From NCBI GenBank assembly GCA_964016885.1, contig OZ024758.1:29884001-29948000 (forward strand): 64,000 nt of DNA. Reading direction: 5' to 3'. Positions 2,760 to 52,652 of this stretch are shown here, one piece after another (position 1 is the stretch's first letter; each line of letters starts with the position of its first letter). The DNA comes from Eledone cirrhosa. Its lineage: Eukaryota. The translations under genes were made by a program, and so were the position numbers. The notes under the pieces were generated by a model. It was given only the letters and a program-made list of their open reading frames with translations. It was not told the origin of the DNA and searched no databases.

Positions 2760-3863
2760 CCCTTTTGCATTTGCATAACATTTACATTATTCTATATATA
2801 CTATTGTATTGTCACAGTAAAGGCTTTACCTTACATAATATCTCACATAACATTAACATTACTCTATATATACTATTGTATTGTCACAGTAAAGGCTTTA
2901 CCTTACATAATATCTCACATAACATTAACATTACTCTATATATACTATTGTATTGTCACAGTAAAGGCTTTACCTTACATAATATCTCACATAACATTTA
3001 CATTACTCTATATATACTATTGTATTGTCACAGTAAAGGCTTTACCTTACATAATATCTCACATAACATTTACATTACTCTATATATACTATTGTATTGT
3101 CACAGTAAAGGCTTTACCTTACATAATATCTCACATAACATTAACATTACTCTATATATACTATTGTATTGTCACAGTAAAGGCTTTACCTTACATAATA
3201 TCTCACATAACATTAACATTACTCTATATATACTATTGTATTGTCACAGTAAAGGCTTTACCTTACATAATATCTCACATAACATTTACATTACTCTATA
3301 TATACTATTGTATTGTCACAGTAAAGGCTTTACCTTACATAATATCTCACATAACATTAACATTACTCTATATATACTATTGTATTGTCACAGTAAAGGC
3401 TTTACCTTACATAATATCTCACATAACATTTACATTACTCTATATATACTATTGTATTGTCACAGTAAAGGCTTTACCTCACATATTTATCTCACATAAC
3501 ATTTACATTACTCTATATATACTATTGTATTGTCACAGTAAAGGCTTTACCTCACATATTTATCTCACATAACATTTACATTACTCTATATATACTATTG
3601 TATTGTCACAGTAAAGGCTTTACCTTACATAATATCTCACTTAACATTTACATTACTCTATATATACTATTGTATTGTCACAGTAAAGGCTTTACCTCAC
3701 ATAATATCTCACATAACATTTACATTACTCTATATATACTATTGTATTGTCACAGTAAAGGCTTTACCTTACATAATATCTCACATAACATTTACATTAC
3801 TCTATATATACTATTGTATTGTCACAGTAAAGGCTTTACCTCACATAATATCTCACATAACAT
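2760..3863 (+). repeat. 72-bp tandem array (about 15 units) starting at a TTAA|CCCTT piggyBac-like left terminus
   Basis: Unit ACTCTATATATACTATTGTATTGTCACAGTAAAGGCTTTACCTTACATAATATCTCACATAACATTTACATT (period 72). TTAA at 2756-2759. Confidence 0.95.
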
Positions 3864-4074
3864 CTCGTATACGAGAGACGTGTGTTGACGTGTGTGAACA
3901 AGCTCGGCTACCGAGTCGGATTTACTTACTCAAAAAGTGAGTTTTGATTAATTTTGTTATACTGTAATATACGTTAACCCCTTGCCTTGGTCGTCAAACT
4001 TTGAGTTTATTTATTTTCGCCCCTTTTTGGGGCGAATTTTCCAGTTAAAAATTTATTACGGCAAACTAATAGAA

Positions 4075-5816
4075 ATGGACGGAATTTTCACATCTCATCC
4101 TAACGTGAAAGCCACGCCCCCTAAGAAAGGTGATACAGAGAAGCTAGAAGCACAAGGCTCTAAGTCTTCCCTCCTCACTTCTGCAAAAGAAACATGGAAC
4201 ACGGAATTAAAAGAAAAATTTGTAGAAATGGGTGAAAACCCAGAAAGTCACATAAACGCAGACAAAAACATCAATGACAATAACAGCAATAGTCACAACA
4301 CCAACCAAGGAAAAAATAACGATAACACCAAACAAAGTGAACCCACTACTGGTACCTCCTTTGCACAGGCGGTCCGGAAAACACAAACCTGCAAGCAACT
4401 GGACATTACAACTCTGAGAGAAAAGATGAAGGAAGCGAAACAGTATGTAACTTTCAAAGAAGGAGGAGACTTCACAATCACCTCCCCACAAGAAATCAAA
4501 AGAGACACGACGCTAAGAACGATATCTTTCAGAACAATTTCCAACATAACAAGGAAACCAACTCAATTATCCCAAAAAGAGATTGAGCTGGTCCTAAAAA
4601 ATGTGTGGAGTGATATATCGTTCATACAAAAAGGGCCACTCTATGGGAATATAACGGTCCTAATGAAGGATCAATTGACGGCCAGGAAATACTCTGTGGC
4701 ACCAATTGTTTCCAAGATATATACATTTTTCCCCACATATTTAGGGAAAAGAACGCAGAAGATAAGGGTCTCCGGAATCCGGCCAAATGCATGCATTTCC
4801 TGGGTACTAACAGGATTTTTAGAAGACGAGGACGGAATCCTCTCAGTAGGAGAAGTCACCACAGACGTTTTCGGCGGTTTGAGCGTGGAGGTTCTGGTCC
4901 AAATGAGACCAGAACGAATCGCTAGAATACCACAGAGGGTGTCCCTCGATGGAGAAACATTTATATATATTTCAGCCGAGGGTAGGAGGCCCATATGTTA
5001 CTACTGTTCAAGCAGGGGTCATCTAAGGGCTGCTTGTCCTCAATTGACAAAAAAAAGGCTCTTTTGCCTACACCCCACACACCACCACCGCCACCACCAC
5101 CACCACCACCACCTCCACCACCACCACCACAACAACAACAAAAACAACAGGGAAAAATAACACAAGACACGGCCCCACCCAAAACAACTCCCAAAACACA
5201 CACAAATACAACAAAACCCCAAAATACACCACTACCCGACAGCACGGACGAGGACCCAGCGGAAACGGCACCTAGTGACGAAGAGGGGGAACCCTTTCAA
5301 CCTGTAAAAAGGAAAAAAAGAAAGCACCACTCGAACATAAACGAAACAAACACACAACCACCAACAAAAACAAAACAAACAGAACAAACAAAATCCGCCC
5401 CACCCCAAAACATAACACATACAACAAAACGTAAGCACACACAAGAACAACAAACAAACACAACACAAATAAAACAGTATACATACATTAACACAAATAA
5501 CAAAGAACTAGTAAAAACAATACACAAAGACCCTTTGGTGGAAACTGAAGGGCAATTCTTTGCAAGCGCGGCCAACAAACCGCATTTAAAAATGATAAGA
5601 CTCCCAATGGACACCTATGCAAAACTAAGAGAGAACTTTCCTGAGGACGTGGGGAAAACATGTACTCGACCCTATAACCGCGTCCTCTTGAAACGTTTCC
5701 CCACCCACACCTCACCAAACACCCCCACTCCACCACAGAACAACACCCCACCAAACAACCCCTCCAATACGCCCATGGATATTGTGCAACCTGCTCCTCA
5801 GGAGCCGAACAGGTAG
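4075..5816 (+). pseudogene. Tx1 ORF1, copy 1, frameshifted in an A-run
   Basis: Same as ORF1 of copy 2 except A8 (5049-5056) versus A9, which splits it into two ORFs. Could be a homopolymer sequencing error. Confidence 0.8.
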
Positions 5817-5837
5817 GTCCTTCCTCTTTTAACCAAC

Positions 5838-8800
5838 ATGGCTGATATAAGAGTTGGGTTTCTGAATGTACGTGGCCTGGGACTGTCTTGGAAACAAGGC
5901 AAACTTTTAAACGATCTCAGGTCACATAGAATGGATGTAATGGCTATTTGCGAGTCCAGGATCAGCAGCGAGCACCAACTGGCGCCCCTCTTCGACGACT
6001 TTGAGATCTTCGCATCTCTCTGTCAACCGGGGGGTGGGGGTGGAGTTGTCGTTCTGCTGCGAAAACACCTGGGCCTCGCCATACAGAAGGTGCACCTGGA
6101 CCCGGAGGGTCGACTGGTGGTTTTAGACGTCGGCAGTAGTGAAAGTGGAGCCCTTAGACTAATAGCTGTGTACGCCCCTTTTTGGGCAGCGCGGCCGGAA
6201 TACTTCCAACGTCTGGAAACTTTTCTGGGAACGTCCCGCTCCTTGCTTTTAGTGGGGGACTGGAATGGTATCCTGGATGCACGTTGGGACTATGTAGGGG
6301 CATGTGCCAATAGAGGGGGGTGTAAAAGCCTCAAAAGGTTAATCGGCCGATTTGACCTGGCCGATAGATATCGACTAGATTTTCCGACTGTACCACTATG
6401 GACGTGGACCAATCGCAGTGGAACATCTAGGTCGTACCTAGATAGGGTCCTAGTTAGAGAGAACGATAGGGACACATTTAGCTGTCCAAAAATGTTCATG
6501 GTTGACTATTCGGATCACAAGTTAGTGACCTGCATAGCCAACCTTGATAGAACCCATAGACAGGGACCCGGTTACTGGAAGCTGAACTTGTCCTTACCGA
6601 GAAGCAAAGCTTACAGTAAACGGATTAGCACGTTAGTTAAGCAGAATTTGACAGGGGCAATTGTCAACAACAGGTGGTGGAGCTCTCTTAAGAGAGCAAT
6701 TAGAATAGAATCGATAGGTTTTAGTCAGGAATTAGCAAGGGATAGGAACAAGACGGAAAGGGAATTAGTAGATAGAGTAGAAGAGGCGATTAGGAGTGGC
6801 AATGTAGCCGGCGTGCTGGCATCAAGAATGGCCTTAGACCAGTTCTTTGAGGTGAAGCATGAAGGCTGCGTTGTCAGGAGTAAAATACGTGCTCTGGGTA
6901 ATGAGGGAGCCAAAGCTGTAAGCTGGGCCCGAGTGACAGAGGCAAAAAGTGGGAACAAGTCCACGATTCGGTCTTTGAAGGACCAGGATGGGCGTGTGAT
7001 CCTTGAACCTGGGCAGATGTGTGCGGCCTTTCAGCGGCACTTTGCACGACTGTTCGAGAGGGGCGGCGCGCCGGGTGAGACTATGGATTTCAATCCATAC
7101 CTCGACGGTCTGCCGCGCCTCTCGGACGCGGAGGCGAAGTCCTGCGAAAGGACGATTTCAGCTGCTGAGATAGGGGCGGCGCTGAGCCAATGCGGCAAAC
7201 GCAAATCCCCGGGTCTCGATGGTCTACCATACGAGCTATATGTAGCGATGCCGGACTTGTTCTCCGATATCCTCGAAGCGGTCTACTGCAACTGGCAGCA
7301 GAACGGGAGAATTCCCAGTTCTGTGACCAAGGGCGTAGTTACGCTGGTGAGGAAGGATGAGAACAAGGGGGATGACATAAGTAACTTCAGGCCCATAACT
7401 CTGCTAAATACAGAGTTAAAGATTTTGGCCAAGGTGTTAGCGAAGAGGTTGGCGCTTGTCGTTGGAAACCTGGTGGGAGAAGCGCAGACATGCGCAATCC
7501 CGTCCAGGTCCATTCACGACAATCTCCACCTTATGCGATACATCATAGAGAGGGTAGGGAATGAACCCGGCTTTGGTGGGGCCCTGATCAACTTGGATCA
7601 ATCTAAAGCTTTCGATAGGGTTGACCATCGTTACCTGGATGCGGTGCTCGCGGCGGCAGGCTTCGGACCCGTTTTCAGGGGTTGGATTGCTGCGATGCAC
7701 AGCAGCAACGTCTGCTCAAGGGTCAAGGTGAACGGCCACCTCTCGGAGCCGTTCCAAATCATGCGATCCATCCGACAGGGATGCCCTCTCTCCTCCCTAC
7801 TGTATGTGCTGGCTCTTGAGCCACTACTGCGGAAGTTGGAGCGGTTGCAGGGCATCCCTTTGGAACCGGGATTGCAGAAAGCGGCGTCGGCCTACGCCGA
7901 TGACGTGACAGTAATGGTGTCGAAAACCTCGCAAATCGGTGAGATCGGCACCTTACTGGAGGAATATGAAAGGTTTACAGGAGCCAAGCTGAACCGGGAC
8001 AAGTCCGTCGGTTTGCAACTCGGAACATGGAGAGGCAAACCGATGCCCTCCAACGACGTCGTCGGACGCTGGACGGAGGGCCCGGTGAAGCTGCTTGGGG
8101 TCTGGTTCGGACCAGACCTCCAGGTGGAGAAAAACTGGAACGAGGTAACGGCCAGGGTGTTTGCACTCACCCAGAAGTGGGCCCAGTGCAAACTATCCCT
8201 GAAAGGTCGAGCGGAGGTGGCGAATACTTATATAGCATCCGTCATCTACTACCGCTTGACCGTCGTGCCTTGCCCAGTGAAAAGACTCGCCAAAATGGAG
8301 TGCGCGCTGTTCCAATTTCTTTGGAACAAGCGGACCCCTTTGGTGAGGAGATCCATCTGCTGTCAACACCCTTCGAAAGGAGGGCTGGGGATGCCGTGGC
8401 TACAGATGCGTAAACACGCATTAAGGCTACGGCACCTCCAGGTATTCCTCACCGGTCAACCGGTGTGGGCCCCGTTTGTGAGGCGAGCCTTTCCCAGACT
8501 CGTCTCGCTCACCGAGCTGCAATCCTGGGTCAAGCAAAGACCGAGAAAAGTGGGCGACTGGCACATTGAATGTGCCCAGGCGCTCACGGCCCTCTGGAAA
8601 GCGGACCCGGCAATCAGTGGAGACTCCACCTCGACATTCTATAGAGGGTTGGTACGCAGCAGGTGCGACGATGCTCTCGGAGAAGCTCTAGGCATGGAGG
8701 AAGATGAACTGGCCAGTCTGTTCGGTAGGACGTTTGGCCCTGGACCGATGGACAACTTCCAAAAGTCCCTGGCTTGGCAGTGCTACCGAGGGGCTCTACC

Positions 8801-9275
8801 CGTTCGAGACAAGCTCCACAGGCATGGGAGCCTGGGTAGAGATCCTTTGAATAAGATCTGTCCGAGATGCGTGCATGATGACGAAACCGTTGCGCACGCA
8901 TTCGTACACTGCCCAGGCATTGCTGACCTGTGGGGCTATGTGGAACGACTACTGTCGAGGGTGGGACCAATCCGGTTGACCACCGAGTCCATTGTCACGA
9001 TCAAACCGCCTCCCCCTTTCAAAAACGAAGGAGAGGCGGTTTTTCTCTGTGTGGTAGCCATGGCTAAAGAAGTTGTATGGTGGACGAGGCTGAAAGGGCT
9101 GAGGTCAGACACCTTTCTCTCCGGCCAACAACTGGTCCCCTTTTTCAAATACCATTTTAAAAGAAGGATCAGAATGGAGAGAGAGGTGCTCTACCCCAGC
9201 AAGTTTTATGAAAGGTGGGTGAAAGTAGGGAGAATGGCCAGAGTGAATGGGTCTTCTCTCTATATCAGCCTGTAG
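5838..9275 (+). CDS. Tx1 ORF2: AP endonuclease, reverse transcriptase and C-terminal zinc finger (1145 aa)
   Basis: APE motifs LNVRGL, VYAP, GDWN, YLDR, SDH. GYWKLN linker. RT motifs SPGLDG, FRPITLLN, DQSKAFD, QGCPLS, YADD. C-terminal CPRC..ETVAHAFVHC. Confidence 0.96.
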   Translation: MADIRVGFLNVRGLGLSWKQGKLLNDLRSHRMDVMAICESRISSEHQLAPLFDDFEIFASLCQPGGGGGVVVLLRKHLGLAIQKVHLDPEGRLVVLDVGSSESGALRLIAVYAPFWAARPEYFQRLETFLGTSRSLLLVGDWNGILDARWDYVGACANRGGCKSLKRLIGRFDLADRYRLDFPTVPLWTWTNRSGTSRSYLDRVLVRENDRDTFSCPKMFMVDYSDHKLVTCIANLDRTHRQGPGYWKLNLSLPRSKAYSKRISTLVKQNLTGAIVNNRWWSSLKRAIRIESIGFSQELARDRNKTERELVDRVEEAIRSGNVAGVLASRMALDQFFEVKHEGCVVRSKIRALGNEGAKAVSWARVTEAKSGNKSTIRSLKDQDGRVILEPGQMCAAFQRHFARLFERGGAPGETMDFNPYLDGLPRLSDAEAKSCERTISAAEIGAALSQCGKRKSPGLDGLPYELYVAMPDLFSDILEAVYCNWQQNGRIPSSVTKGVVTLVRKDENKGDDISNFRPITLLNTELKILAKVLAKRLALVVGNLVGEAQTCAIPSRSIHDNLHLMRYIIERVGNEPGFGGALINLDQSKAFDRVDHRYLDAVLAAAGFGPVFRGWIAAMHSSNVCSRVKVNGHLSEPFQIMRSIRQGCPLSSLLYVLALEPLLRKLERLQGIPLEPGLQKAASAYADDVTVMVSKTSQIGEIGTLLEEYERFTGAKLNRDKSVGLQLGTWRGKPMPSNDVVGRWTEGPVKLLGVWFGPDLQVEKNWNEVTARVFALTQKWAQCKLSLKGRAEVANTYIASVIYYRLTVVPCPVKRLAKMECALFQFLWNKRTPLVRRSICCQHPSKGGLGMPWLQMRKHALRLRHLQVFLTGQPVWAPFVRRAFPRLVSLTELQSWVKQRPRKVGDWHIECAQALTALWKADPAISGDSTSTFYRGLVRSRCDDALGEALGMEEDELASLFGRTFGPGPMDNFQKSLAWQCYRGALPVRDKLHRHGSLGRDPLNKICPRCVHDDETVAHAFVHCPGIADLWGYVERLLSRVGPIRLTTESIVTIKPPPPFKNEGEAVFLCVVAMAKEVVWWTRLKGLRSDTFLSGQQLVPFFKYHFKRRIRMEREVLYPSKFYERWVKVGRMARVNGSSLYISL

Positions 9276-9512
9276 GTGAAAGAAGAGGAAAAAGCGGAGA
9301 CGAGGGAAGCACCTACTCTTTGTGCTCCTGAGGAGAAGGGTTACACATTTTTTCCGGGGTGTGTGCGACCCATGTTAATGCCCCCTCCCTATTGAGGACT
9401 TCGTTTGTTGTTGTTATTTCATTGTTATATTTTTGTACTCGTTAATTATATGTAAACTTCCCCCCTTGTATCTGTCCCTACCTTTTGTGCCCTAGTGGCA
9501 AATAAAGAAACC

Positions 9513-10443
9513 ACTCTATATATACTATTGTATTGTCACAGTAAAGGCTTTACCTTACATAATATCTCACATAACATTTACATTACTCTATATATACTAT
9601 TGTATTGTCACAGTAAAGGCTTTACCTTACATAATATCTCACATAACATTTACATTACTCTATATATACTATTGTATTGTCACAGTAAAGGCTTTACCTT
9701 ACATAATATCTCACATAACATTAACATTACTCTATATATACTATTGTATTGTCACAGTAAAGGCTTTACCTTACATAATATCTCACATAACATTAACATT
9801 ACTCTATATATACTATTGTATTGTCACAGTAAAGGCTTTACCTTACATAATATCTCACATAACATTTACATTACTCTATATATACTATTGTATTGTCACA
9901 GTAAAGGCTTTACCTTACATAATATCTCACATAACATTAACATTACTCTATATATACTATTGTATTGTCACAGTAAAGGCTTTACCTTACATAATATCTC
10001 ACATAACATTTACATTACTCTATATATACTATTGTATTGTCACAGTAAAGGCTTTACCTCACATATTTATCTCACATAACATTTACATTACTCTATATAT
10101 ACTATTGTATTGTCACAGTAAAGGCTTTACCTCACATATTTATCTCACATAACATTTACATTACTCTATATATACTATTGTATTGTCACAGTAAAGGCTT
10201 TACCTTACATAATATCTCACTTAACATTTACATTACTCTATATATACTATTGTATTGTCACAGTAAAGGCTTTACCTCACATAATATCTCACATAACATT
10301 TACATTACTCTATATATACTATTGTATTGTCACAGTAAAGGCTTTACCTTACATAATATCTCACATAACATTTACATTACTCTATATATACTATTGTATT
10401 GTCACAGTAAAGGCTTTACCTCACATAATATCTCACATAACAT
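9513..10443 (+). repeat. 72-bp tandem array (13 units) between the two Tx1 copies
   Basis: Same unit. The order of variant units matches 2933-3863 (offset 6580). Confidence 0.95.
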
Positions 10444-10654
10444 CTCGTATACGAGAGACGTGTGTTGACGTGTGTGAACAAGCTCGGCTACCGAGTCGGA
10501 TTTACTTACTCAAAAAGTGAGTTTTGATTAATTTTGTTATACTGTAATATACGTTAACCCCTTGCCTTGGTCGTCAAACTTTGAGTTTATTTATTTTCGC
10601 CCCTTTTTGGGGCGAATTTTCCAGTTAAAAATTTATTACGGCAAACTAATAGAA

Positions 10655-12397
10655 ATGGACGGAATTTTCACATCTCATCCTAACGTGAAAGCCACGCCCC
10701 CTAAGAAAGGTGATACAGAGAAGCTAGAAGCACAAGGCTCTAAGTCTTCCCTCCTCACTTCTGCAAAAGAAACATGGAACACGGAATTAAAAGAAAAATT
10801 TGTAGAAATGGGTGAAAACCCAGAAAGTCACATAAACGCAGACAAAAACATCAATGACAATAACAGCAATAGTCACAACACCAACCAAGGAAAAAATAAC
10901 GATAACACCAAACAAAGTGAACCCACTACTGGTACCTCCTTTGCACAGGCGGTCCGGAAAACACAAACCTGCAAGCAACTGGACATTACAACTCTGAGAG
11001 AAAAGATGAAGGAAGCGAAACAGTATGTAACTTTCAAAGAAGGAGGAGACTTCACAATCACCTCCCCACAAGAAATCAAAAGAGACACGACGCTAAGAAC
11101 GATATCTTTCAGAACAATTTCCAACATAACAAGGAAACCAACTCAATTATCCCAAAAAGAGATTGAGCTGGTCCTAAAAAATGTGTGGAGTGATATATCG
11201 TTCATACAAAAAGGGCCACTCTATGGGAATATAACGGTCCTAATGAAGGATCAATTGACGGCCAGGAAATACTCTGTGGCACCAATTGTTTCCAAGATAT
11301 ATACATTTTTCCCCACATATTTAGGGAAAAGAACGCAGAAGATAAGGGTCTCCGGAATCCGGCCAAATGCATGCATTTCCTGGGTACTAACAGGATTTTT
11401 AGAAGACGAGGACGGAATCCTCTCAGTAGGAGAAGTCACCACAGACGTTTTCGGCGGTTTGAGCGTGGAGGTTCTGGTCCAAATGAGACCAGAACGAATC
11501 GCTAGAATACCACAGAGGGTGTCCCTCGATGGAGAAACATTTATATATATTTCAGCCGAGGGTAGGAGGCCCATATGTTACTACTGTTCAAGCAGGGGTC
11601 ATCTAAGGGCTGCTTGTCCTCAATTGACAAAAAAAAAGGCTCTTTTGCCTACACCCCACACACCACCACCGCCACCACCACCACCACCACCACCTCCACC
11701 ACCACCACCACAACAACAACAAAAACAACAGGGAAAAATAACACAAGACACGGCCCCACCCAAAACAACTCCCAAAACACACACAAATACAACAAAACCC
11801 CAAAATACACCACTACCCGACAGCACGGACGAGGACCCAGCGGAAACGGCACCTAGTGACGAAGAGGGGGAACCCTTCCAACCTGTAAAAAGGAAAAAAA
11901 GAAAGCACCACTCGAACATAAACGAAACAAACACACAACCACCAACAAAAACAAAACAAACAGAACAAACAAAATCCGCCCCACCCCAAAACATAACACA
12001 TACAACAAAACGTAAGCACACACAAGAACAACAAACAAACACAACACAAATAAAACAGTATACATACATTAACACAAATAACAAAGAACTAGTAAAAACA
12101 ATACACAAAGACCCTTTGGTGGAAACTGAAGGGCAATTCTTTGCAAGCGCGGCCAACAAACCGCATTTAAAAATGATAAGACTCCCAATGGACACCTATG
12201 CAAAACTAAGAGAGAACTTTCCTGAGGACGTGGGGAAAACATGTACTCGACCCTATAACCGCGTCCTCTTGAAACGTTTCCCCACCCACACCTCACCAAA
12301 CACCCCCACTCCACCACAGAACAACACCCCACCAAACAACCCCTCCAATACGCCCATGGATATTGTGCAACCTGCTCCTCAGGAGCCGAACAGGTAG
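10655..12397 (+). CDS. Tx1 ORF1 nucleic-acid-binding protein (about 580 aa) with CCHC zinc knuckle and Pro/Gln/Thr-rich tail
   Basis: First ATG at 10655 (MDGIFTSH). CYYCSSRGHLRAAC fits CX2CX4HX4C. Basic cluster KRKKRK. Stop lies 21 nt before the ORF2 ATG. Confidence 0.9.
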   Translation: MDGIFTSHPNVKATPPKKGDTEKLEAQGSKSSLLTSAKETWNTELKEKFVEMGENPESHINADKNINDNNSNSHNTNQGKNNDNTKQSEPTTGTSFAQAVRKTQTCKQLDITTLREKMKEAKQYVTFKEGGDFTITSPQEIKRDTTLRTISFRTISNITRKPTQLSQKEIELVLKNVWSDISFIQKGPLYGNITVLMKDQLTARKYSVAPIVSKIYTFFPTYLGKRTQKIRVSGIRPNACISWVLTGFLEDEDGILSVGEVTTDVFGGLSVEVLVQMRPERIARIPQRVSLDGETFIYISAEGRRPICYYCSSRGHLRAACPQLTKKKALLPTPHTPPPPPPPPPPPPPPPPQQQQKQQGKITQDTAPPKTTPKTHTNTTKPQNTPLPDSTDEDPAETAPSDEEGEPFQPVKRKKRKHHSNINETNTQPPTKTKQTEQTKSAPPQNITHTTKRKHTQEQQTNTTQIKQYTYINTNNKELVKTIHKDPLVETEGQFFASAANKPHLKMIRLPMDTYAKLRENFPEDVGKTCTRPYNRVLLKRFPTHTSPNTPTPPQNNTPPNNPSNTPMDIVQPAPQEPNR

Positions 12398-12418
12398 GTC
12401 CTTCCTCTTTTAACCAAC

Positions 12419-15400
12419 ATGGCTGATATAAGAGTTGGGTTTCTGAATGTACGTGGCCTGGGACTGTCTTGGAAACAAGGCAAACTTTTAAACGATCTCA
12501 GGTCACATAGAATGGATGTAATGGCTATTTGCGAGTCCAGGATCAGCAGCGAGCACCAACTGGCGCCCCTCTTCGACGACTTTGAGATCTTCGCATCTCT
12601 CTGTCAACCGGGGGGTGGGGGTGGAGTTGTCGTTCTGCTGCGAAAACACCTGGGCCTCGCCATACAGAAGGTGCACCTGGACCCGGAGGGTCGACTGGTG
12701 GTTTTAGACGTCGGCAGTAGTGAAAGTGGAGCCCTTAGACTAATAGCTGTGTACGCCCCTTTTTGGGCAGCGCGGCCGGAATACTTCCAACGTCTGGAAA
12801 CTTTTCTGGGAACGTCCCGCTCCTTGCTTTTAGTGGGGGACTGGAATGGTATCCTGGATGCACGTTGGGACTATGTAGGGGCATGTGCCAATAGAGGGGG
12901 GTGTAAAAGCCTCAAAAGGTTAATCGGCCGATTTGACCTGGCCGATAGATATCGACTAGATTTTCCGACTGTACCACTATGGACGTGGACCAATCGCAGT
13001 GGAACATCTAGGTCGTACCTAGATAGGGTCCTAGTTAGAGAGAACGATAGGGACACATTTAGCTGTCCAAAAATGTTCATGGTTGACTATTCGGATCACA
13101 AGTTAGTGACCTGCATAGCCAACCTTGATAGAACCCATAGACAGGGACCCGGTTACTGGAAGCTGAACTTGTCCTTACCGAGAAGCAAAGCTTACAGTAA
13201 ACGGATTAGCACGTTAGTTAAGCAGAATTTGACAGGGGCAATTGTCAACAACAGGTGGTGGAGCTCTCTTAAGAGAGCAATTAGAATAGAATCGATAGGT
13301 TTTAGTCAGGAATTAGCAAGGGATAGGAACAAGACGGAAAGGGAATTAGTAGATAGAGTAGAAGAGGCGATTAGGAGTGGCAATGTAGCCGGCGTGCTGG
13401 CATCAAGAATGGCCTTAGACCAGTTCTTTGAGGTGAAGCATGAAGGCTGCGTTGTCAGGAGTAAAATACGTGCTCTGGGTAATGAGGGAGCCAAAGCTGT
13501 AAGCTGGGCCCGAGTGACAGAGGCAAAAAGTGGGAACAAGTCCACGATTCGGTCTTTGAAGGACCAGGATGGGCGTGTGATCCTTGAACCTGGGCAGATG
13601 TGTGCGGCCTTTCAGCGGCACTTTGCACGACTGTTCGAGAGGGGCGGCGCGCCGGGTGAGACTATGGATTTCAATCCATACCTCGACGGTCTGCCGCGCC
13701 TCTCGGACGCGGAGGCGAAGTCCTGCGAAAGGACGATTTCAGCTGCTGAGATAGGGGCGGCGCTGAGCCAATGCGGCAAACGCAAATCCCCGGGTCTCGA
13801 TGGTCTACCATACGAGCTATATGTAGCGATGCCGGACTTGTTCTCCGATATCCTCGAAGCGGTCTACTGCAACTGGCAGCAGAACGGGAGAATTCCCAGT
13901 TCTGTGACCAAGGGCGTAGTTACGCTGGTGAGGAAGGATGAGAACAAGGGGGATGACATAAGTAACTTCAGGCCCATAACTCTGCTAAATACAGAGTTAA
14001 AGATTTTGGCCAAGGTGTTAGCGAAGAGGTTGGCGCTTGTCGTTGGAAACCTGGTGGGAGAAGCGCAGACATGCGCAATCCCGTCCAGGTCCATTCACGA
14101 CAATCTCCACCTTATGCGATACATCATAGAGAGGGTAGGGAATGAACCCGGCTTTGGTGGGGCCCTGATCAACTTGGATCAATCTAAAGCTTTCGATAGG
14201 GTTGACCATCGTTACCTGGATGCGGTGCTCGCGGCGGCAGGCTTCGGACCCGTTTTCAGGGGTTGGATTGCTGCGATGCACAGCAGCAACGTCTGCTCAA
14301 GGGTCAAGGTGAACGGCCACCTCTCGGAGCCGTTCCAAATCATGCGATCCATCCGACAGGGATGCCCTCTCTCCTCCCTACTGTATGTGCTGGCTCTTGA
14401 GCCACTACTGCGGAAGTTGGAGCGGTTGCAGGGCATCCCTTTGGAACCGGGATTGCAGAAAGCGGCGTCGGCCTACGCCGATGACGTGACAGTAATGGTG
14501 TCGAAAACCTCGCAAATCGGTGAGATCGGCACCTTACTGGAGGAATATGAAAGGTTTACAGGAGCCAAGCTGAACCGGGACAAGTCCGTCGGTTTGCAAC
14601 TCGGAACATGGAGAGGCAAACCGATGCCCTCCAACGACGTCGTCGGACGCTGGACGGAGGGCCCGGTGAAGCTGCTTGGGGTCTGGTTCGGACCAGACCT
14701 CCAGGTGGAGAAAAACTGGAACGAGGTAACGGCCAGGGTGTTTGCACTCACCCAGAAGTGGGCCCAGTGCAAACTATCCCTGAAAGGTCGAGCGGAGGTG
14801 GCGAATACTTATATAGCATCCGTCATCTACTACCGCTTGACCGTCGTGCCTTGCCCAGTGAAAAGACTCGCCAAAATGGAGTGCGCGCTGTTCCAATTTC
14901 TTTGGAACAAGCGGACCCCTTTGGTGAGGAGATCCATCTGCTGTCAACACCCTTCGAAAGGAGGGCTGGGGATGCCGTGGCTACAGATGCGTAAACACGC
15001 ATTAAGGCTACGGCACCTCCAGGTATTCCTCACCGGTCAACCGGTGTGGGCCCCGTTTGTGAGGCGAGCCTTTCCCAGACTCGTCTCGCTCACCGAGCTG
15101 CAATCCTGGGTCAAGCAAAGACCGAGAAAAGTGGGCGACTGGCACATTGAATGTGCCCAGGCGCTCACGGCCCTCTGGAAAGCGGACCCGGCAATCAGTG
15201 GAGACTCCACCTCGACATTCTATAGAGGGTTGGTACGCAGCAGGTGCGACGATGCTCTCGGAGAAGCTCTAGGCATGGAGGAAGATGAACTGGCCAGTCT
15301 GTTCGGTAGGACGTTTGGCCCTGGACCGATGGACAACTTCCAAAAGTCCCTGGCTTGGCAGTGCTACCGAGGGGCTCTACCCGTTCGAGACAAGCTCCAC

Positions 15401-15856
15401 AGGCATGGGAGCCTGGGTAGAGATCCTTTGAATAAGATCTGTCCGAGATGCGTGCATGATGACGAAACCGTTGCGCACGCATTCGTACACTGCCCAGGCA
15501 TTGCTGACCTGTGGGGCTATGTGGAACGACTACTGTCGAGGGTGGGACCAATCCGGTTGACCACCGAGTCCATTGTCACGATCAAACCGCCTCCCCCTTT
15601 CAAAAACGAAGGAGAGGCGGTTTTTCTCTGTGTGGTAGCCATGGCTAAAGAAGTTGTATGGTGGACGAGGCTGAAAGGGCTGAGGTCAGACACCTTTCTC
15701 TCCGGCCAACAACTGGTCCCCTTTTTCAAATACCATTTTAAAAGAAGGATCAGAATGGAGAGAGAGGTGCTCTACCCCAGCAAGTTTTATGAAAGGTGGG
15801 TGAAAGTAGGGAGAATGGCCAGAGTGAATGGGTCTTCTCTCTATATCAGCCTGTAG
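12419..15856 (+). CDS. Tx1 ORF2: AP endonuclease, reverse transcriptase and zinc finger (1145 aa)
   Basis: Protein matches that of 5838-9275. Confidence 0.96.
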   Translation: MADIRVGFLNVRGLGLSWKQGKLLNDLRSHRMDVMAICESRISSEHQLAPLFDDFEIFASLCQPGGGGGVVVLLRKHLGLAIQKVHLDPEGRLVVLDVGSSESGALRLIAVYAPFWAARPEYFQRLETFLGTSRSLLLVGDWNGILDARWDYVGACANRGGCKSLKRLIGRFDLADRYRLDFPTVPLWTWTNRSGTSRSYLDRVLVRENDRDTFSCPKMFMVDYSDHKLVTCIANLDRTHRQGPGYWKLNLSLPRSKAYSKRISTLVKQNLTGAIVNNRWWSSLKRAIRIESIGFSQELARDRNKTERELVDRVEEAIRSGNVAGVLASRMALDQFFEVKHEGCVVRSKIRALGNEGAKAVSWARVTEAKSGNKSTIRSLKDQDGRVILEPGQMCAAFQRHFARLFERGGAPGETMDFNPYLDGLPRLSDAEAKSCERTISAAEIGAALSQCGKRKSPGLDGLPYELYVAMPDLFSDILEAVYCNWQQNGRIPSSVTKGVVTLVRKDENKGDDISNFRPITLLNTELKILAKVLAKRLALVVGNLVGEAQTCAIPSRSIHDNLHLMRYIIERVGNEPGFGGALINLDQSKAFDRVDHRYLDAVLAAAGFGPVFRGWIAAMHSSNVCSRVKVNGHLSEPFQIMRSIRQGCPLSSLLYVLALEPLLRKLERLQGIPLEPGLQKAASAYADDVTVMVSKTSQIGEIGTLLEEYERFTGAKLNRDKSVGLQLGTWRGKPMPSNDVVGRWTEGPVKLLGVWFGPDLQVEKNWNEVTARVFALTQKWAQCKLSLKGRAEVANTYIASVIYYRLTVVPCPVKRLAKMECALFQFLWNKRTPLVRRSICCQHPSKGGLGMPWLQMRKHALRLRHLQVFLTGQPVWAPFVRRAFPRLVSLTELQSWVKQRPRKVGDWHIECAQALTALWKADPAISGDSTSTFYRGLVRSRCDDALGEALGMEEDELASLFGRTFGPGPMDNFQKSLAWQCYRGALPVRDKLHRHGSLGRDPLNKICPRCVHDDETVAHAFVHCPGIADLWGYVERLLSRVGPIRLTTESIVTIKPPPPFKNEGEAVFLCVVAMAKEVVWWTRLKGLRSDTFLSGQQLVPFFKYHFKRRIRMEREVLYPSKFYERWVKVGRMARVNGSSLYISL

Positions 15857-16093
15857 GTGAAAGAAGAGGAAAAAGCGGAGACGAGGGAAGCACCTACTCT
15901 TTGTGCTCCTGAGGAGAAGGGTTACACATTTTTTCCGGGGTGTGTGCGACCCATGTTAATGCCCCCTCCCTATTGAGGACTTCGTTTGTTGTTGTTATTT
16001 CATTGTTATATTTTTGTACTCGTTAATTATATGTAAACTTCCCCCCTTGTATCTGTCCCTACCTTTTGTGCCCTAGTGGCAAATAAAGAAACC

Positions 16094-16697
16094 ACTCTAT
16101 ATATACTATTGTATTGTCACAGTAAAGGCTTTACCTTACATAATATCTCACTTAACATTTACATTACTCTATATATACTATTGTATTGTCACAGTAAAGG
16201 CTTTACCTTACATAATATCTCACATAACATTTACATTACTCTATATATACTATTGTATTTTCACAGTAAAGGCTTTACCTTACATAATATCTCATAACAT
16301 TTACATTACTCTATATATACTATTGTATTGTCACAGTAAAGGCTTTACCTTACATAATATCTCACATAACATTTACATTACTCTATATATACTATTGTAT
16401 TGTCACAGTAAAGGCTTTACCTTACATAATATCTCACATAACATTTACATTACTCTATATATACTATTGTATTGTCACAGTAAAGGCTTTACCTCACATA
16501 ATATCTCACATAACATTTACATTACTCTATATATACTATTGTATTGTCACAGTAAAGGCTTTACCTTACATAATATCTCACATAACATTTACATTACTCT
16601 ATATATACTATTGTATTTTCACAGTAAAGGCTTTACCTCACATAATATCTCACATAACATTTACATTACTCTATATATACTATTGTATTTTCACAGT
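16094..16697 (+). repeat. 72-bp tandem array (about 8 units), right part; MITE right end absent
   Basis: Same unit. Terminal units carry the TTTTCAC/CCTCAC variants. Confidence 0.93.
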
Positions 16698-16888: not shown

Positions 16889-17095
16889 TGTTCTAGCTGA
16901 ATTGATATGTTGAGAGTTTACTTCTTACTCTATTATATTCACCAAATGGAAAAAGAAAAAAAAAACTCCTTTGAAGATTCATTCTTCTTGTGTATATAAT
17001 ATCATCATCATCATCAACTTCCATTTTTCCACACTGCATGTTACACAATGATGATGATAGTGATATCATACATGCAGGATATATATATATATATA

Positions 17096-21203: not shown

Positions 21204-22317
21204 ACACATATGTATGCATGCACACTTACATGCTCTGTATCTTTCAAAAAATATTTATTATATTTTTATATAACTAACAAGGATTTCTTTATTATTAACT
21301 AACAATAATTCCTTTATTAATGATAATAAGGATTCCTTTATTAATTAGAATTTTTTTCAACATGAATGATATATAAACTTTGAAGACCGTATGTAACTGA
21401 ATAATCAGAAAATGACAAAAATTTAGGTCCTATCTAGATATCATCTCTTCAACTATATTTAGTTATTTCTACTGATGCCTGCTTGCCTTCTTGTGTGACA
21501 TAAAAACAAACAAAATTAGTGGTGGATTTGAGAGAAGGTCTTAGTGATTCTTCTCTATAAATAACTGCATTGACTATAAAGAACCTCCATCCCCCACTAC
21601 ACACATACATGTACATCCTTATGAGATAACAATGCATTTGACATGACAATGATATTCCATTTCATTCTTTTGTTTAGTTTTTTATCCGTATATTAATAAT
21701 ATACATTCCTATTTTTTTGTAACCCCCTTCTCTCCATCACTTACTTATCTCGCTCATAATACAAAGGACTGCATACATGAATTCATACATGTTTATGTAA
21801 GATTGTTGTTGTTGTTGTTTTCTTCTGTCTCACTAATATTTCATACAAAGTTTGTATCACTATAATTGGTATTCATTACTTTGAAACTTGTACAACCCTA
21901 AGACCTCTTACCTAAGCTATGTTAAATAGGTCTCAGTTACTTGCCACTGACAAGCTGTATTATCTCTAACTAGTACTGTTTTAGGGAACAAACACATGTA
22001 GCATGAACATCTTTGTAATGTTTCAAAATGTCCTCTCTTTTTTTGTAACAAACTCTGAATAGAAGCAAAGTGTATCGTTTGACGGTTTTATTCTTATAAG
22101 TTTTGATTGAGAAATGCAGCTAGTTGCAATAAAAGCTAAAGGATCAATATTTGTGTTTTGTAATGCATTGTTTTTGACAAAGACACTTTTGATAGCTCAT
22201 TCTATGCAGCTGTATATGCAATAAGAAGCTATAAAGGTTACTGGCGTATACAGCTTGTTGGTATATGAGTATTCTGTTACTTTGGAATTTACTATCATCA
22301 TCATTATTATTATAGGC

Positions 22318-23130
22318 AGGGTAGTGGATTGGCAGAATTGTTAGAGCGGGAGACAAAATTCTTTGCAATATTTGTTCCAGTTCTTTACATTCTGAGTTTA
22401 AATCCAGCCGAGTTAGCTTTGCCTTTCATCCTTACGGGGTCAATAAAATAAAGTACCAGTAATGTACTGGGGTCAATTTAATCAACTTTCCCCTCCTGCA
22501 AAGTTGCTGGCTTTGTGCCTATAGTAGAAATCATTGTGTTGTAGTTAGGGTTAGGGTTAGGGTTAGGGTTAGGGTGGTGGATTGGCAGAATTGTTAGAGT
22601 GCCAGACAAAACTCTTTGCAATAGTTCCAGCTCTTTACATTCTAAGTTCAAATTCTGCCAGGGGCAGTTTTGCCTTTCATCCATCTCAGGTGGGGAGTTG
22701 ATAAAATAAAGTACCAGTCAAATATTGGGGTTGATTTAATCGACTTTCCACCCCCCTCCTCAAATTGCTGGCTTTGTGCCTGAATTAGAAACCATTATTA
22801 TTAGAGGGTCGGACGCCATGCTTTCCAGCATAGTTACGTCCCTTTATGATCTGAGTTCAAATCCCGCCGAGGTTGACTTTGCCTTTCATCCTTACGGGGT
22901 CGATAAAATAAAGTACCAGTAATGCACTGAGTAATTGCTGGCCTTGTGCCTAAAGTAGAAACATTATTATTATTGGTTGATTGGAAGATTTAGTAGATCA
23001 GTGGATGAAATACCATTGCAGTATTTGATCTGACTCTTTACATCCTCAGTTCAAATACCGCTGGAGTCAACATTGCCTTTCATTCTTTTGAGGTCGATAA
23101 AAAAAATACCAGTCTAATACTGGGGTTGAT
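22318..23130 (+). mobile_element. Cluster of four head-to-tail family-1 SINE copies
   Basis: Copies near 22318, 22571, 22803 and 22980 share GAGTTCAAAT...GCCTTTCATCC...GATAAAATAAAGTACCAGT. Confidence 0.85.
22545..22574 (+). repeat. (TTAGGG)5 interstitial telomere-type repeat
   Basis: Five perfect TTAGGG units between two SINE copies. Confidence 0.9.
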
Positions 23131-23239
23131 TCTTCCTCTATATATCTTTTTCATTTTCTCTATCCTTCTCTGGAAGAAATCTGCTGTATTCAGACCTGGA
23201 GAGGAGATGGGCTCTGTTAGCTTTAAAAATGCCCTAGAA

Positions 23240-23585: not shown

Positions 23586-23661
23586 AATATTAGAAACTCA
23601 TTTCTACTGACTTTAGCTAGATTTTAACTCAGACGGCAAAGAGCTTAAAAAAATTCCTTAA

Positions 23662-23869
23662 CCCTCTAGCATTGAAACCGGTTATATCCGGCCAGAATTC
23701 TCTCACTTCTTTCAGTTCAAACTGGCTGTGACTGGCTGCTTATACTGATGTTAAGGTATTGTTCTCAAAACAAATAATATTAAAATCTCATAGATATGAT
23801 ATTATGTGAGATAAATCCTTTACCGTGAAAATATAATAGTAAATATAGAGTAATGTAAATGCTAAAGGG
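23662..23869 (-). mobile_element. piggyBac-like MITE, 208-bp unexpanded form of the 72-bp-array element
   Basis: TTAA|CCCTCTAGCATT ... AATGCTAAAGGG|TTGA (TIR 11/12). The reverse complement holds one copy of the array unit plus the unique right arm seen at 26240-26376. Confidence 0.85.
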
Positions 23870-24614
23870 TTGAAGTATTTTTTCTGACGCTGTAATGATT
23901 CTGCCAATTTACTTACTGGCAAACTTTAAGAAATGTAGTTCATTAAACTATTTGACTGGTAATTAATTTATGGCGTTCTTCCCCTCACCTGAAGGATGAC
24001 AGGTAAAGTCAACACCTGCATAATTTGAAACAGCAGGATGGAATTAGATATTATTAAGTAGGTAGTTTGTAGTTCTATCCTTCACTCTATCTACTACTTC
24101 ACTCCTTAATTATTAGTATTTCTACCAATATGAGACAAGTAATCTTCAAACAATTAATTAATCCATTCATTACTATATTTCTAAGGGAAGACACTGCCTA
24201 TTTTAATTAATTTTGAAAATATAATCAAGAATTCGGAGAGATTTAGTAATAACTTTCTCAATACTAAACTAGTGTTTGGAACATAACTTAACTGAGTTCT
24301 TACATAGAATTATGGTGGAAAGATTTTAGATACTTCTAAAAGCACCCAGTAGATGCTGTAAAGTGGTTGGTGTTAGGAAGGAGCAGGGCCCTTCAGTTTG
24401 TGTCAAAAGACATGACAACTTCTCCTCTGTACTTGATATGACTGTTTGTAAGCAGAATACAGACCCTTGGTCTGCCTGGGAAGTCTTGCTTCAGTACCGA
24501 CTTGTTCTTTGTAGACCCATGCAACTCTTGCTAGCAGGGAAAGTGGATGTTAAATGATGATCATGATGATGATAATGATAAGCACTTTCAAATAAAAATA
24601 ACTCAATATTATAA

Positions 24615-24890
24615 AAGGGTGATGTGTTGTTTCCTTGAGCAAGACACTTTATTTCACATTGCTCCAGTTTACTCAGTTGTAGAAATGAGATGATAGGGAC
24701 TGGGGTCCCTATCATTCCACTGCAAAGTGGTCGTGGAGGTGCCACGGCAAAAAAGCACCCAGCACTCGCTGTAAATGAGGTTGGTGTTAGGAAGGGCATC
24801 CAGCTGTAGAAATCAAGCCAGAATCAGTTCCCGTCCCACCCTTGCAAGCAGGGAAAAGTGGACGTAAAATGATGATGATGATGATGATGA
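24615..24890 (+). mobile_element. tRNA-SINE family 2, 5'-truncated, with RTE-derived 3' end
   Basis: Reverse complement of the 34015-34343 copy. Ends CCCACCCTTGCAAGCAGGGAAAAGTGGACGTAAAA(TGA)n like RTE family B. Confidence 0.85.
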
Positions 24891-25006
24891 AAGCCAGTTT
24901 CAGGTGGTTTGGTATTGAGATAGAATTGGTTTCAATTTCTGATCATAAAAAACACTGTGCTGAGATGATATACACCCAGTGATAAGTGCAACAAAACAAG
25001 CAGCTA

Positions 25007-25194
25007 CAGGTAAAATTCCGTTATAACGAATACCATTATAATGAATTTTTCAGTATAATGAAATTTTTTTCAATCCCAAAGGTAACAACAAACAAACGCT
25101 CAATTTGTTTTGGTCAATCTCGTTATAAAGAATTTTTTGTGACAACAAATTTTTTTTATACCCCGTGAATTTTGTTATAACTGAATTTCAATTC
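25007..25194. mobile_element. Degenerate pogo/Tigger-like MITE
   Basis: caggtaaaattccgttataacgaa ... tttgttataactgaatttc inverted ends with repeated gttataa motifs. Confidence 0.5.
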
Positions 25195-25365
25195 TAGGCC
25201 CTTCATCCCTGGTCAACTGAATGTATAAACTACCTCTCGTTCTTAATAGAGTTGACAAATTATGCTATTTTCACAAATTATGTTACTAAACTTGACTTGT
25301 TTACCACTTTGACAAGTATATATGAACTTTCAAATGAAATTCAGTTTGTATTTTTCACATCTTAA

Positions 25366-26376
25366 CCCTTTAGCATTCACATTACTATATATATACTATT
25401 ATATTTTCATGGTAAAGGCTTTACCTCACATAATATCTCACATAACATTCACATTACTATATATATACTATTATATTTTCATGATAAAGGTTTTACCTCA
25501 CATAATATCTCACATAACATTCACATTACTATATATATACTATTGTATTTTCACAGTAAAGGCTTTACCTCACATAATATCTCACATAACATTTACATTA
25601 CTCTATATATACTATTGTATTTTCACAGTAAAGGCTTTACCTAACATAATATCTCACATAACATTTACATTACTCTATATATACTATTGTATTTTCACAG
25701 TAAGGGCTTTACCCCACATAATATCTCACATAACATTCACATTACTCTATATATACTATTGTATTTTCATGGTAAAGGCTTTACCTCACATAATATCTCA
25801 CATAACATTTACATTACTCTATATATACTATTGTATTTTCACAGTAAAGGCTTTACCTCACATAATATCTCACATAACATTTACATTACTCTATATATAC
25901 TATTGTATTTTCACAGTAAAGGCTTTACCTCACATAATATCTCACATAACATTTACATTACTCTATATATACTATTGTATTTTCACAGTAAGGGCTTTAC
26001 CCCACATAATATCTCACATAACATTTACATTACTCTATATATACTATTGTATTTTCACAGTAAAGGCTTTACCTCACATAATATCTCACATAGCATTTAC
26101 ATTACTCTATATATACTATTGTATTTTCATGGTAAAGGCTTTACCTCACATAATATCTCACATAACATTTACATTACTCTATATATACTATTGTATTTTC
26201 ACAGTAAAGGCTTTACCTCACATAATATCTTACATAATATCGAATCTATGAGATTTTGAAAGTATTTATTTTCAGAACAATACGTTAACATCAGTTTGAG
26301 TGACCAGTTACAGCCAGTTTCAACAGAAAGAGGTAGAGAATTCTGGCCCGTTTTGGCTGGTTTGAACATTAAAGGG
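25366..26376 (+). mobile_element. Complete piggyBac-like MITE with about 12 internal 72-bp units
   Basis: TTAA (25362-25365) CCCTTTAGCATTCA ... TGAACATTAAAGGG TTAA (26377-26380). Confidence 0.9.
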
Positions 26377-26619
26377 TTAAAACATAATCTTTTGTGGTGC
26401 ATCTACTTACACTTCGTGGCACCAAGTAGGAGAAACCCTTGTCTACATAACAACTCAACAAAACATACACAAAGTCAGCCATTGGAGCAGATTGGGACCA
26501 TAGCCACCACATCTACATTATTCATTCAACTTGCTAGACATAGCAATCAAATCTCCCTAAAATCACACTCTACTGTCTTATAAAAAAGGATGACATATTG
26601 AATAATGCAGTTCTATATA

Positions 26620-37260: not shown

Positions 37261-38892
37261 CCCTCTACCATTCACATTACTCTATATATACTATTGTATT
37301 TTCACAGTAAAGGCTTTACCTCACATAATATCTCACATAACATTTACATTACTCTATATATACTATTGTATTTTCATGGTAAAGGCTTTACCTCACATAA
37401 CATTTACATTACTCTATATTTACTATTGTATTTTCACAGTAAGGGCTTTACCTCACATAATATCTCACATAACATTTACATTACACTATATATACTATTG
37501 TATTTTCATGGTAAAGGCTTTACCTCACATAACATTTACATTACTCTATATATACTATTGTATTTTCACAGTAAGGGCTTTACCTCACATAATATCTCAC
37601 ATAACATTTACATTACTCTATATATACTATTGTATTTTCACAGTAAAGGCTTTACCTCACATAATATCTCACATAACATTTACATTACTCTATATATACT
37701 ATTGTATTTTCACAGTAAAGGCTTTACCTCACATAATATCTCACATAACATTTACATTACTCTATATATACTATTGTATTTTCATGGTAAAGGCTTTACC
37801 TCACATAATATCTCACATAACATTTACATTACTCTATATATACTATTGTATTTTCATGGTAAAGGCTTTACCTCACATAATATCTCACATAACATTTACA
37901 TTACTCTATATATACTATTGTATTTTCATGGTAAAGGCTTTACCTCACATAACATTTACATTACTCTATATATACTATTGTATTTTCACAGTAAGGGCTT
38001 TACCTCACATAATATCTCACATAACATTTACATTACTCTATATATACTATTGTATTTTCACAGTAAAGGCTTTACCTCACATAATATCTCACATAACATT
38101 TACATTACTCTATATATACTATTGTATTGTCACAGTAAGGGCTTTACCTCACATAATATCTCACATAACATTTACATTACTCTATATATACTATTGTATT
38201 GTCACAGTAAGGGCTTTACCTCACATAATATCTCACATAACATTTACATTACTCTATATTTACTATTGTATTTTCACAGTAAAGGCTTTACCTCACATAA
38301 TATCTCACATAACATTTACATTACTCTATATATACTATTGTATTTTCACAGTAAAGGCTTTACCTCACATAATATCTCACATAACATTTACATTACTCTA
38401 TATATACTATTGTATTTTCATGGTAAAGGCTTTACCTCACATAATATCTCACATAACATTTACATTACTCTATATATACTATTGTATTTTCATGGTAAAG
38501 GCTTTACCTCACATAATATCTCACATAACATTTACATTACTCTATATATACTATTGTATTTTCATGGTAAAGGCTTTACCTCACATAACATTTACATTAC
38601 TCTATATATACTATTGTATTTTCACAGTAAGGGCTTTACCTCACATAATATCTCACATAACATTTACATTACTCTATATATACTATTGTATTTTCACAGT
38701 AAAGGCTTTACCTCACATAATATCTCACATAACATTTACATTACTCTATATATACTATTGTATTTTCACAGTAAAGGCTTTACCTCACATAATATCTCAC
38801 ATAACATTTACATTACTCTATATATACTATTGTATTTTCATGGTAAAGGCTTTACCTCACATAATATCTCACATAACATCTACATTACTCTA
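37261..38892 (+). repeat. 72-bp array (about 23 units, a few 60-bp deletion variants) from a MITE left end; right end absent
   Basis: TTAA (37257-37260) CCCTCTACCATTCACATT followed by the units. Confidence 0.93.
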
Positions 38893-52224: not shown

Positions 52225-52652
52225 CCCTTTAGCATTCACATTACTCTATATATACTATTGTATTTTCATGGTAAAGGCTTTACCTCACATAATACCTCAC
52301 ATAACATTTACATTACTCTATATATACTATTGTATTTTCATGGTAAAGGCTTTACCTCACATAATACCTCACATAACATTTACATTACTCTATATATACT
52401 ATTATATTTTCATGGTAAAGGCTTTACCTCACATAATACCTCACATAACATTCACATTACTCTATATATACTATTGTATTTTCATGGTAAAGGCTTTACC
52501 TCACATAATTATCTCGCATAATATTGAATCTATGAGATTTTGAAAGTATTTATTTTGAGAACAATACCTTAACATCAGTTTGAGTGACCAGTTACAGCCA
52601 GTTTCAACAGAAAGAGGTAGAGAATTCTGGCCGGTTTTGGCCAGTTTGAACA
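52225..52652 (+). mobile_element. piggyBac-like MITE with about 4 units; last bases of the right TIR replaced by an RTE fragment
   Basis: TTAA (52221-52224) CCCTTTAGCATTCA, units, then a right arm matching 26240-26368. Confidence 0.88.

Follow-up and report, generated by a model that had tools for sequence, protein, structure and literature searches.

We analyzed a 64,000-nucleotide stretch of the Eledone cirrhosa genome (GenBank assembly GCA_964016885.1, contig OZ024758.1, positions 29,884,001 to 29,948,000 of the forward strand; hereafter the window, with positions counted from its first letter) and found in it a family of MITEs (miniature inverted-repeat transposable elements) whose left-subterminal 72 bp is repeated in tandem 4 to 23 times. 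We regard this as overall the best explanation of the arrays and put its probability at roughly 0.75. The repeat is a minisatellite inside a transposon and not a free satellite: all four arrays keep the left end of the element, the longest uninterrupted one measures 1.6 kb, and, as no array in the window is detached from a left end, no free satellite is seen. The original prediction had described a pathway from MITE to satellite; its derivation of the arrays from the left-subterminal segment of a mobile TTAA element held, while the satellite did not. The family is a new one of an already described type, exemplified by miDNA4, Xmix/Xstir, and DTC84.

The MITE family and its 72-bp arrays

The family comprises five elements starting at TTAA|CCCT (one of them at TCAA), which carry one 60-bp unit (copy S), 4 units (copy D), 12 units (copy B), 23 units (copy C), or a split array (copy A). 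Their parts are listed below.

23662..23869, minus strand: copy S, a 208-bp MITE with one 60-bp unit and terminal inverted repeats (TIRs) matching at 11/12 positions, of a sister subfamily ~80% identical to B and D
25366..26376, plus strand: copy B, complete, with TTAA on both sides (25362-25365 and 26377-26380)
25374..26237, plus strand: array of B, 12 x 72 bp (12.0 units), each unit being 60 bp plus a 12-bp tandem duplication
26238..26376, plus strand: unique right arm of B, 139 bp, with the right TIR at its end
52225..52652, plus strand: copy D, 4 units and the right arm, with the last 8 nt and the TTAA missing
37261..38892, plus strand: copy C, 23 units (19 x 72 bp and 4 x 60 bp) and a partial unit, with a 420-bp higher-order period and without the right arm
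2760..3863, plus strand: copy A, block 1, with the left end, an 11-bp remnant unit, and 15 units (15.1)
9513..10443, plus strand: copy A, block 2, 13 units (12.9), identical to 2933-3863 (931 bp)
16094..16697, plus strand: copy A, block 3, 8.4 units, abutting a 23-bp minisatellite and without the right arm

All 7 intact ends start with CCCT, as had been predicted for the arrays at 52225, 37261, and 2760. A scan with the 16-nt terminus gave 14 to 16 matches out of 16 at six sites, every one of them a family end, which is far beyond chance, and the 8-mer TTAACCCT occurred 7 times against 1.9 expected, with 6 of the 7 occurrences at family ends. The two elements described earlier as having both TIRs do have them; in B the TIR is imperfect (7/7, then 11/14 overall), and the two flanks of S read TTAA and TTGA. 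These are the only two of the five copies that kept both ends, and the right arm is present in the window only at B, D, and S. The two longest arrays (those at 2760 and 37261) lack it, as the original prediction had stated, but the proposed relationship between unit number and end integrity was not borne out, the right end being lost in 2/2 long versus 1/3 short copies (P=0.4). Similarly, the four arrays do lie on one strand, but this is not significant (P=0.125). In place of the right arm, the array of A is abutted by the 23-bp minisatellite (16696-16905), which shares a 9-nt word, possibly by chance, with the 3' junction of the long interspersed nuclear element (LINE) nested in the same copy.

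Judged by its sequence, S is a diverged sister subfamily, neither simply the one-unit state of the family nor its ancestor. The right arm of S shares 79.5% identity with that of B and 81% with that of D, against 95.4% between B and D, and the S unit is without the 12-bp duplication that the last unit of B and that of D have. The earlier reading of S as an element with a single, shorter unit was correct as to the one 60-bp unit but not as to its place as the one-unit state, and the proposed ladder of about 1, 4, 12, 23, and 36 units also loses its top, as the supposed 36-unit array consists of 15.1 + 12.9 + 8.4 units split by two LINE copies and likely duplicated from ~23.5. The family has no coding capacity: the core is 208 bp long, and the open frames inside the arrays are translated repeats.

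The unit begins inside the left TIR, extends to element bp ~78-80, and consists of a 60-bp segment plus the 12-bp tandem duplication. At the unit junction, the end of this 60-bp + 12-bp segment meets the interior of the TIR at a 2-nt microhomology. There are 58 occurrences of the junction 13-mer, and a single junction, at 26091, retains the terminal G, in agreement with the predicted origin of the junction from TIR-adjacent sequence. The four 60-bp units of C, which drop the 12-bp repeat, and the 11-bp remnant at the start of A represent deletions bounded by short direct repeats. We compared 52 units of 72 bp, leaving out block 2 of A (a copy), units of 60, 70, or 73 bp, and terminal partial units. 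The mean number of within-array differences was 1.05 in A, 1.78 in C, 1.33 in D, and 3.61 in B, and between arrays it ranged from 2.8 to 5.7. Arrays B and C share two exact unit types, and in each of them a linked two-base variant and a variant breaking the palindrome of the unit (see below) are segregating. This points either to a mobile progenitor that already had several units or to conversion between loci. The 60- and 11-bp deletion units, the 420-bp period, and the low within-array divergence of A, C, and D are signatures of slippage and unequal exchange. A left-end hairpin as the driver of the arrays was rejected, since folding was not better than that of shuffles at any of the four left ends (z, -0.03 to -1.28); a two-unit stretch folded at a z of -2.6, solely by palindrome pairing between units.

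Target site, mobility, and transposon class

The elements of the family move as a unit, as seen from their unrelated flanks, the TTAA on both sides of B, and the interruption of a short interspersed nuclear element (SINE) by S. The left flanks of the five copies aligned no better than shuffles (scores of 11 to 22, with the top 5 of 100 shuffles at 22 to 26), the four array loci have unrelated flanks, and TTAA lies to the left of A, C, and D. BLAST searches with the flanks of these three copies returned no paired left and right matches. The SINE interrupted by S has an uninterrupted relative nearby.

23612..23919, plus strand: host SINE of S, with flanking TTAA (23658-23661) and TTGA (23870-23873), the likely target-site duplication
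22317..22412, minus strand: empty-site SINE paralogue, uninterrupted, matching the two S flanks at 33/50 and 34/50 with a 4-nt overlap

With the self-locus masked, this paralogue reached 67/100 at an exact 4-nt overlap, and none of 100 shuffles did so (maximum, 55). It upholds a 4-bp target duplication for S, a value that depends on the best match, since other SINE paralogues give other overlaps.

Termini beginning with CC are characteristic of piggyBac elements. The piggyBac target is TTAA (PMC7351741), and the combination of a TTAA target and CC termini points to piggyBac. Kolobok requires RR (AGGRR) ends (PMC6004289). Identity with Kolobok or its T2-MITEs was rejected, as the family ends in CCCT, and of the two kinds of autonomous partner originally proposed, this one does not fit the termini. 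Judging from these features, the family is likely a non-coding MITE of the piggyBac type, likely moved by a transposase encoded elsewhere. The transposase domains were sought in 150 open reading frames (ORFs) of the window, from 158 selected among 332 ORFs of at least 60 amino acids (aa); the scan omitted 8 of the 158, low-complexity ORFs, and ORFs inside arrays or LINEs.

The LINE nested in copy A

The original prediction had overlooked a LINE nested in the array of copy A. Two 5.65-kb copies of it part the three array blocks.

3864..9512, plus strand: LINE copy 1, L1/Tx1 group, 5649 bp; ORF1, from 4075, is frameshifted in an A-run near 5049, and ORF2 (5838-9275) is intact
10444..16093, plus strand: LINE copy 2, 5650 bp; ORF1, 10655-12397 (CCHC knuckle); ORF2, 12419-15856 (apurinic/apyrimidinic endonuclease [APE], reverse transcriptase [RT], and zf-RVT)
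2933..16093, plus strand: tandem duplication, in which 2933-9512 is repeated as 9513-16093 with 2 differences in ~6580 bp (6.58 kb)

Between the two LINE copies there are 2 differences in 5650 positions, the length of the A-run and a synonymous T/C transition, and the identity of the duplicated blocks extends over the 931 bases before the LINE and 58 bp after it. The sequence at 2933-9512 thus recurs at 9513-16093, and before the likely duplication locus A would have held ~23.5 units. Both copies lie in identical unit phase at both junctions, and the insertion site is without 7 nt of the unit (modulo 72) and shows no recognizable short target duplication. A 4-unit target duplication was rejected, because the variant pattern after LINE copy 2 does not repeat units 12 to 15. 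At the 5' junction of the LINE (3863-3876 and 10443-10456), the sequence opens with a perfect palindrome of 14 nt, which may be a fold-back trace left by integration.

An ORF1 with a CCHC zinc knuckle is typical of the Tx1 clade. On its domains, the LINE is assigned to the L1/Tx1 group: it has a separate ORF1 and an ORF2 with an APE endonuclease, an RT, and a C-terminal zinc motif. The 1145-aa ORF2 is intact and matched RVT_1 (E=1.7e-27), Exo_endo_phos (2.1e-12), and zf-RVT (2.3e-6), and its best PDB match was human L1 ORF2p (E=3.2e-53, versus 2.9e-23 for R2). ORF1 gave a zf-CCHC match (E=0.0069) below the Pfam cut-off, and its atlas neighbors, at 0.90 to 0.92, carry zf-CCHC and RNA-binding domains. 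No labeled Tx1 reference was among the database matches of the LINE. For a retrotransposon ORF of the window, the best named relative, a single named record, belongs to the octopod Argonauta hians and is 68% identical across the RT region.

Unequal exchange between the array blocks flanking the LINE is the simplest cause of the duplication, and two other accounts have to be set beside it. One is that the second LINE and its 13 units are an assembly error, a false tandem duplication in a repeat. It would fit the 6.58 kb that show one homopolymer-length difference and one substitution only, as well as the position of both breakpoints inside the tandem array; we nevertheless find it doubtful, as the one base exchanged is a synonymous transition and the unit that directly follows LINE copy 2 has a private variant, absent after copy 1, as a real crossover would give, although a haplotype stitch could still show both. 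The other account, to which we give no more credence, is that the LINE is a sequence-specific retrotransposon of the Tx1 type that targets the 72-bp unit, and that a second target-primed event, in unit 3, was resolved against the resident copy and made the 931-bp direct repeat while lengthening the array. Such resolution against a resident copy is a mechanism taken from work on L1. Consistent with targeting, a full-length, intact LINE sits in an array, and the window contains neither a further copy of it nor a truncated fragment; after de-duplication, the 72-bp arrays make up 7.9% of the window; the sole substitution between the copies is synonymous; the LINE has no poly(A), with AATAAA 12 nt from its end; the nick was not at an L1-like T-tract; and the duplication breakpoint lies within 58 bp of the LINE 3' junction, as this model predicts.

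Published precedents also lend plausibility to targeting. Many Tx1 families are target specific, including for DNA transposons; crocodilian Tx1 families target Mariner and Harbinger, and in Xenopus the non-autonomous piggyBac element Tx1D receives insertions of Tx1L, the criterion for specificity in the cited text being more than 20% of insertions in one target (PMC4494074). In Octopus vulgaris, 13 L1-Tx1 families have been recently active, and there are 6 piggyBac families (PMC13282606). The evidence on the other side is that there is one independent insertion site and that the common phase of the two copies would also be inherited under unequal exchange. Moreover, an unrelated RT ORF (29447-31984) likewise stands between blocks of a 100-bp minisatellite, so that LINEs land in arrays here without implying targeting. 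The endonuclease hairpin loop has 9 residues, as in L1, versus 11 in Tx1L and 11 to 13 in 15 of the 17 relatives scored; the length of this loop is, however, no diagnostic feature. Taken one step further, the pair might be an octopod counterpart of Tx1L/Tx1D, in which the LINE endonuclease would target the MITE unit, the MITE would multiply the landing site, and the LINE would duplicate array blocks, giving a two-parasite loop that grows the minisatellite; this is somewhat less likely than targeting as such.

Origin of the arrays, related systems, and neighboring sequences

The repeat probably grew by ordinary slippage and unequal exchange and not by a dedicated pathway. We infer the following course. 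A one-unit ancestor would have duplicated bp ~7 to 78 at the 2-nt microhomology, and a multi-unit progenitor would then have spread, as the unit variants segregating in both B and C suggest. Arrays would have lengthened and shortened in place, and right ends would have been lost by deletion, leaving copies stranded. In copy A, a full-length L1/Tx1-group LINE would have inserted with the loss of 7 nt of target (modulo 72); the array blocks on its two sides likely underwent unequal exchange, which duplicated 13 units together with the LINE and gave the apparent 36.

Several observations weigh against this account or parts of it. The direction from 1 to n units is of our own inferring, and S is a diverged sister and not the ancestor. 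Array B is not homogenized, its within-array difference of 3.61 exceeding that between B and C (2.78). Besides the best-matching SINE paralogue, seven others overlap by 3, 3, 3, 3, 5, 5, and 7 nt, and two further matches give 9 and -19. The claimed movement of the element as a unit was upheld by the two TTAA sites of B and the empty-site paralogue of S, but an empty site for B, sought in the window, was not found (best, 51/100). None of the 150 window ORFs scanned has a transposase domain, and, since no transposase with matching ends was found, it is the TTAA target and the CC termini that carry the piggyBac label. Finally, the breakpoint in copy A must fall within the first 58 bp of the 604 that follow the LINE, an ~10% event under random unequal exchange.

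The opposite origin, with a pre-existing 72-bp minisatellite captured by the MITE and not generated from it, we consider very improbable. Capture has been proposed for the miDNA4 repeat (PMC12628747), and the window is rich in unrelated minisatellites, but the inner portion of the left TIR belongs to the unit, every array begins at the element's left end with no free array in the window, and one junction still has the terminal G.

A different question is whether the unit was amplified for what it binds. The palindrome, predicted for every unit, is exact in 66 of the 75 array units, is broken in the other 9, and has 2 of its 6 pairs broken in S. It occupies element bp 47-59, has no half-site in any of the three right arms, and has its left half in an inverted TIR-like motif at bp 44-54, so that palindrome and motif together span bp 44-59. 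In post hoc shuffles, this motif matched the TIR at 9/11 positions in B and D, in the first unit of each (P=0.012); the figure was 8/11 for S (P=0.09) and 7/11 for the commonest unit variant (P=0.61); with the TTAA included the match was 12/16 (P=0.011), and against the S right end it was 14/20 (P=0.006). In piggyBac, each end has a palindrome bound by the cysteine-rich domain (CRD), the left one lying at bp 17-33 (PMC7351741), and piggyBat has three motif-plus-palindrome modules at the left end only, of which the third is inhibitory (PMC11707139). By analogy, binding of a transposase to the palindrome is possible, and, as piggyBat has left-only palindromic modules, such a role is not refuted here. 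That the unit was amplified as a putative binding module, with extra modules altering mobility or titrating the transposase and copy number under transposon-level selection, is a conjecture we hold unlikely. The start of the unit inside the TIR, the 9/11 motif, and the piggyBat precedent speak for it. Against it stand the broken palindromes, the poor match of the commonest unit variant, the terminal hairpins that folded no better than shuffles, and the mismatch between bp 47-59 and the piggyBac site; moreover, a perfect palindrome with 6-bp arms arises by chance when the unit is shuffled, in 14% of cases with mononucleotide and 10% with dinucleotide shuffling.

Tandem amplification of a segment internal to a MITE is known from miDNA4 and Xmix/Xstir (PMC12628747, PMC9659126). 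In miDNA4 of Xenopus tropicalis (Scalvenzi and Pollet), a MITE unit likewise occurs as a monomer or in variable arrays with microhomology-driven change, and long arrays lose the terminal repeats (PMC12628747, PMC9659126), the corresponding trend here having a P of 0.4. It differs in being a Tc1/mariner element whose repeat is proposed to have been captured, whereas the present family targets TTAA, has a unit overlapping the left TIR, and shows no detached satellite. Xmix (a T2-MITE of Kolobok) and Xstir, also from Xenopus, are like the present family in being TTAA-targeting MITEs with a tandem internal segment, and they occur as MITE, array, and composite forms (PMC6004289, PMC12628747); Xmix ends in AGGRR, as opposed to CCCT here, where the unit is 72 bp long and left-subterminal. 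DTC84, a MITE from another mollusc, the clam Donax trunculus, varies in its number of core repeats and has a palindrome near each junction and position-specific variants, but it has at most 5 repeats, a microsatellite, and an AA target (PMC3879986), in contrast to up to 23 units, a TTAA target, terminal TIRs, and no microsatellite in B or D in the present case. A tandem-repeat MITE of the DTC84/pearl-like kind was rejected, the AA target and adjoining microsatellite not being found.

Tx1D of Xenopus laevis carries internal tandem repeats, which are the target of Tx1L. The nesting of an APE-RT LINE in a non-autonomous TTAA element is common to that pair and to copy A (PMC4494074, PMC1950540, PMC6719617); the specificity of Tx1L was shown biochemically, whereas here there is one insertion site, no short target duplication, and a 9- versus 11-residue loop. 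The ends of piggyBac and piggyBat are alike in their TTAA target, asymmetry, and subterminal palindromes (PMC7351741, PMC11707139), but their sites were footprinted and determined structurally and begin within ~35 bp of the tip, whereas the palindrome here, a putative site, lies at bp 47-59. PMC6947457 and PMC10294476 served as background only.

The family provides a likely cephalopod, piggyBac-type case of the route, already described, that leads from a MITE to a tandem repeat; its short, complete, and stranded copies stand close together, and it warns that nested LINE duplications can inflate unit counts. Should the LINE be specific for the unit, it would constitute a site-specific APE retrotransposon that is intact and open to testing, has a target of 72 bp, and gives Tx1L/Tx1D a counterpart among molluscs. 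Should the palindrome bind transposase, the copies would form a natural titration series for the tuning of piggyBac activity by the number of subterminal sites, a question raised by piggyBat (PMC11707139). We found no description of this element, or of a MITE-targeting Tx1 in cephalopods, in the literature covered, Repbase and most subscription papers lying outside that coverage. In bacterial and archaeal genomes, the 32-nt unit pattern had 0 exact matches, and the ORF2 peptide pattern gave 42 stretches, 0 of them confirmed.

The window is AT-rich, repeat-dense animal DNA. Rfam gave one match over the 64 kb, unrelated to the MITE family, which is tRNA-like (61193-61258, minus strand; 34.7 bits) and possibly a SINE head. 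An additional TTAA|CCCT start, at 593-910, has no kinship to the family past the first few bases, and the SINE just downstream of it has an exact 15-bp direct repeat on both sides (695-709 and 896-910). About 100 bp upstream of copy A lies an ~200-bp self-inverted sequence (2444-2655; 77.5%), and just upstream of copy B, at 25010-25190, repeated and inverted motifs look, by eye, like another MITE. PIF1 helicase fragments in two frames at 18841-19942 are likely a Helitron remnant, and a weak GIY-YIG match at 42259-42567 (minus strand; E=5e-4) is likely a Penelope-like remnant. The RT ORF at 29447-31984 encodes 845 aa with a PHD finger and lies, within 28913-33415, between two blocks of one 100-bp minisatellite; 3' fragments of similar elements are scattered across the window. 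Other tandem arrays are found at 23239-23566 (89-bp units from a SINE fragment), 26931-28540 (22-bp units, 1.6 kb), and 47550-50425 (GC-rich 56-bp units, 2.9 kb), and the region as a whole expands many kinds of sequence.

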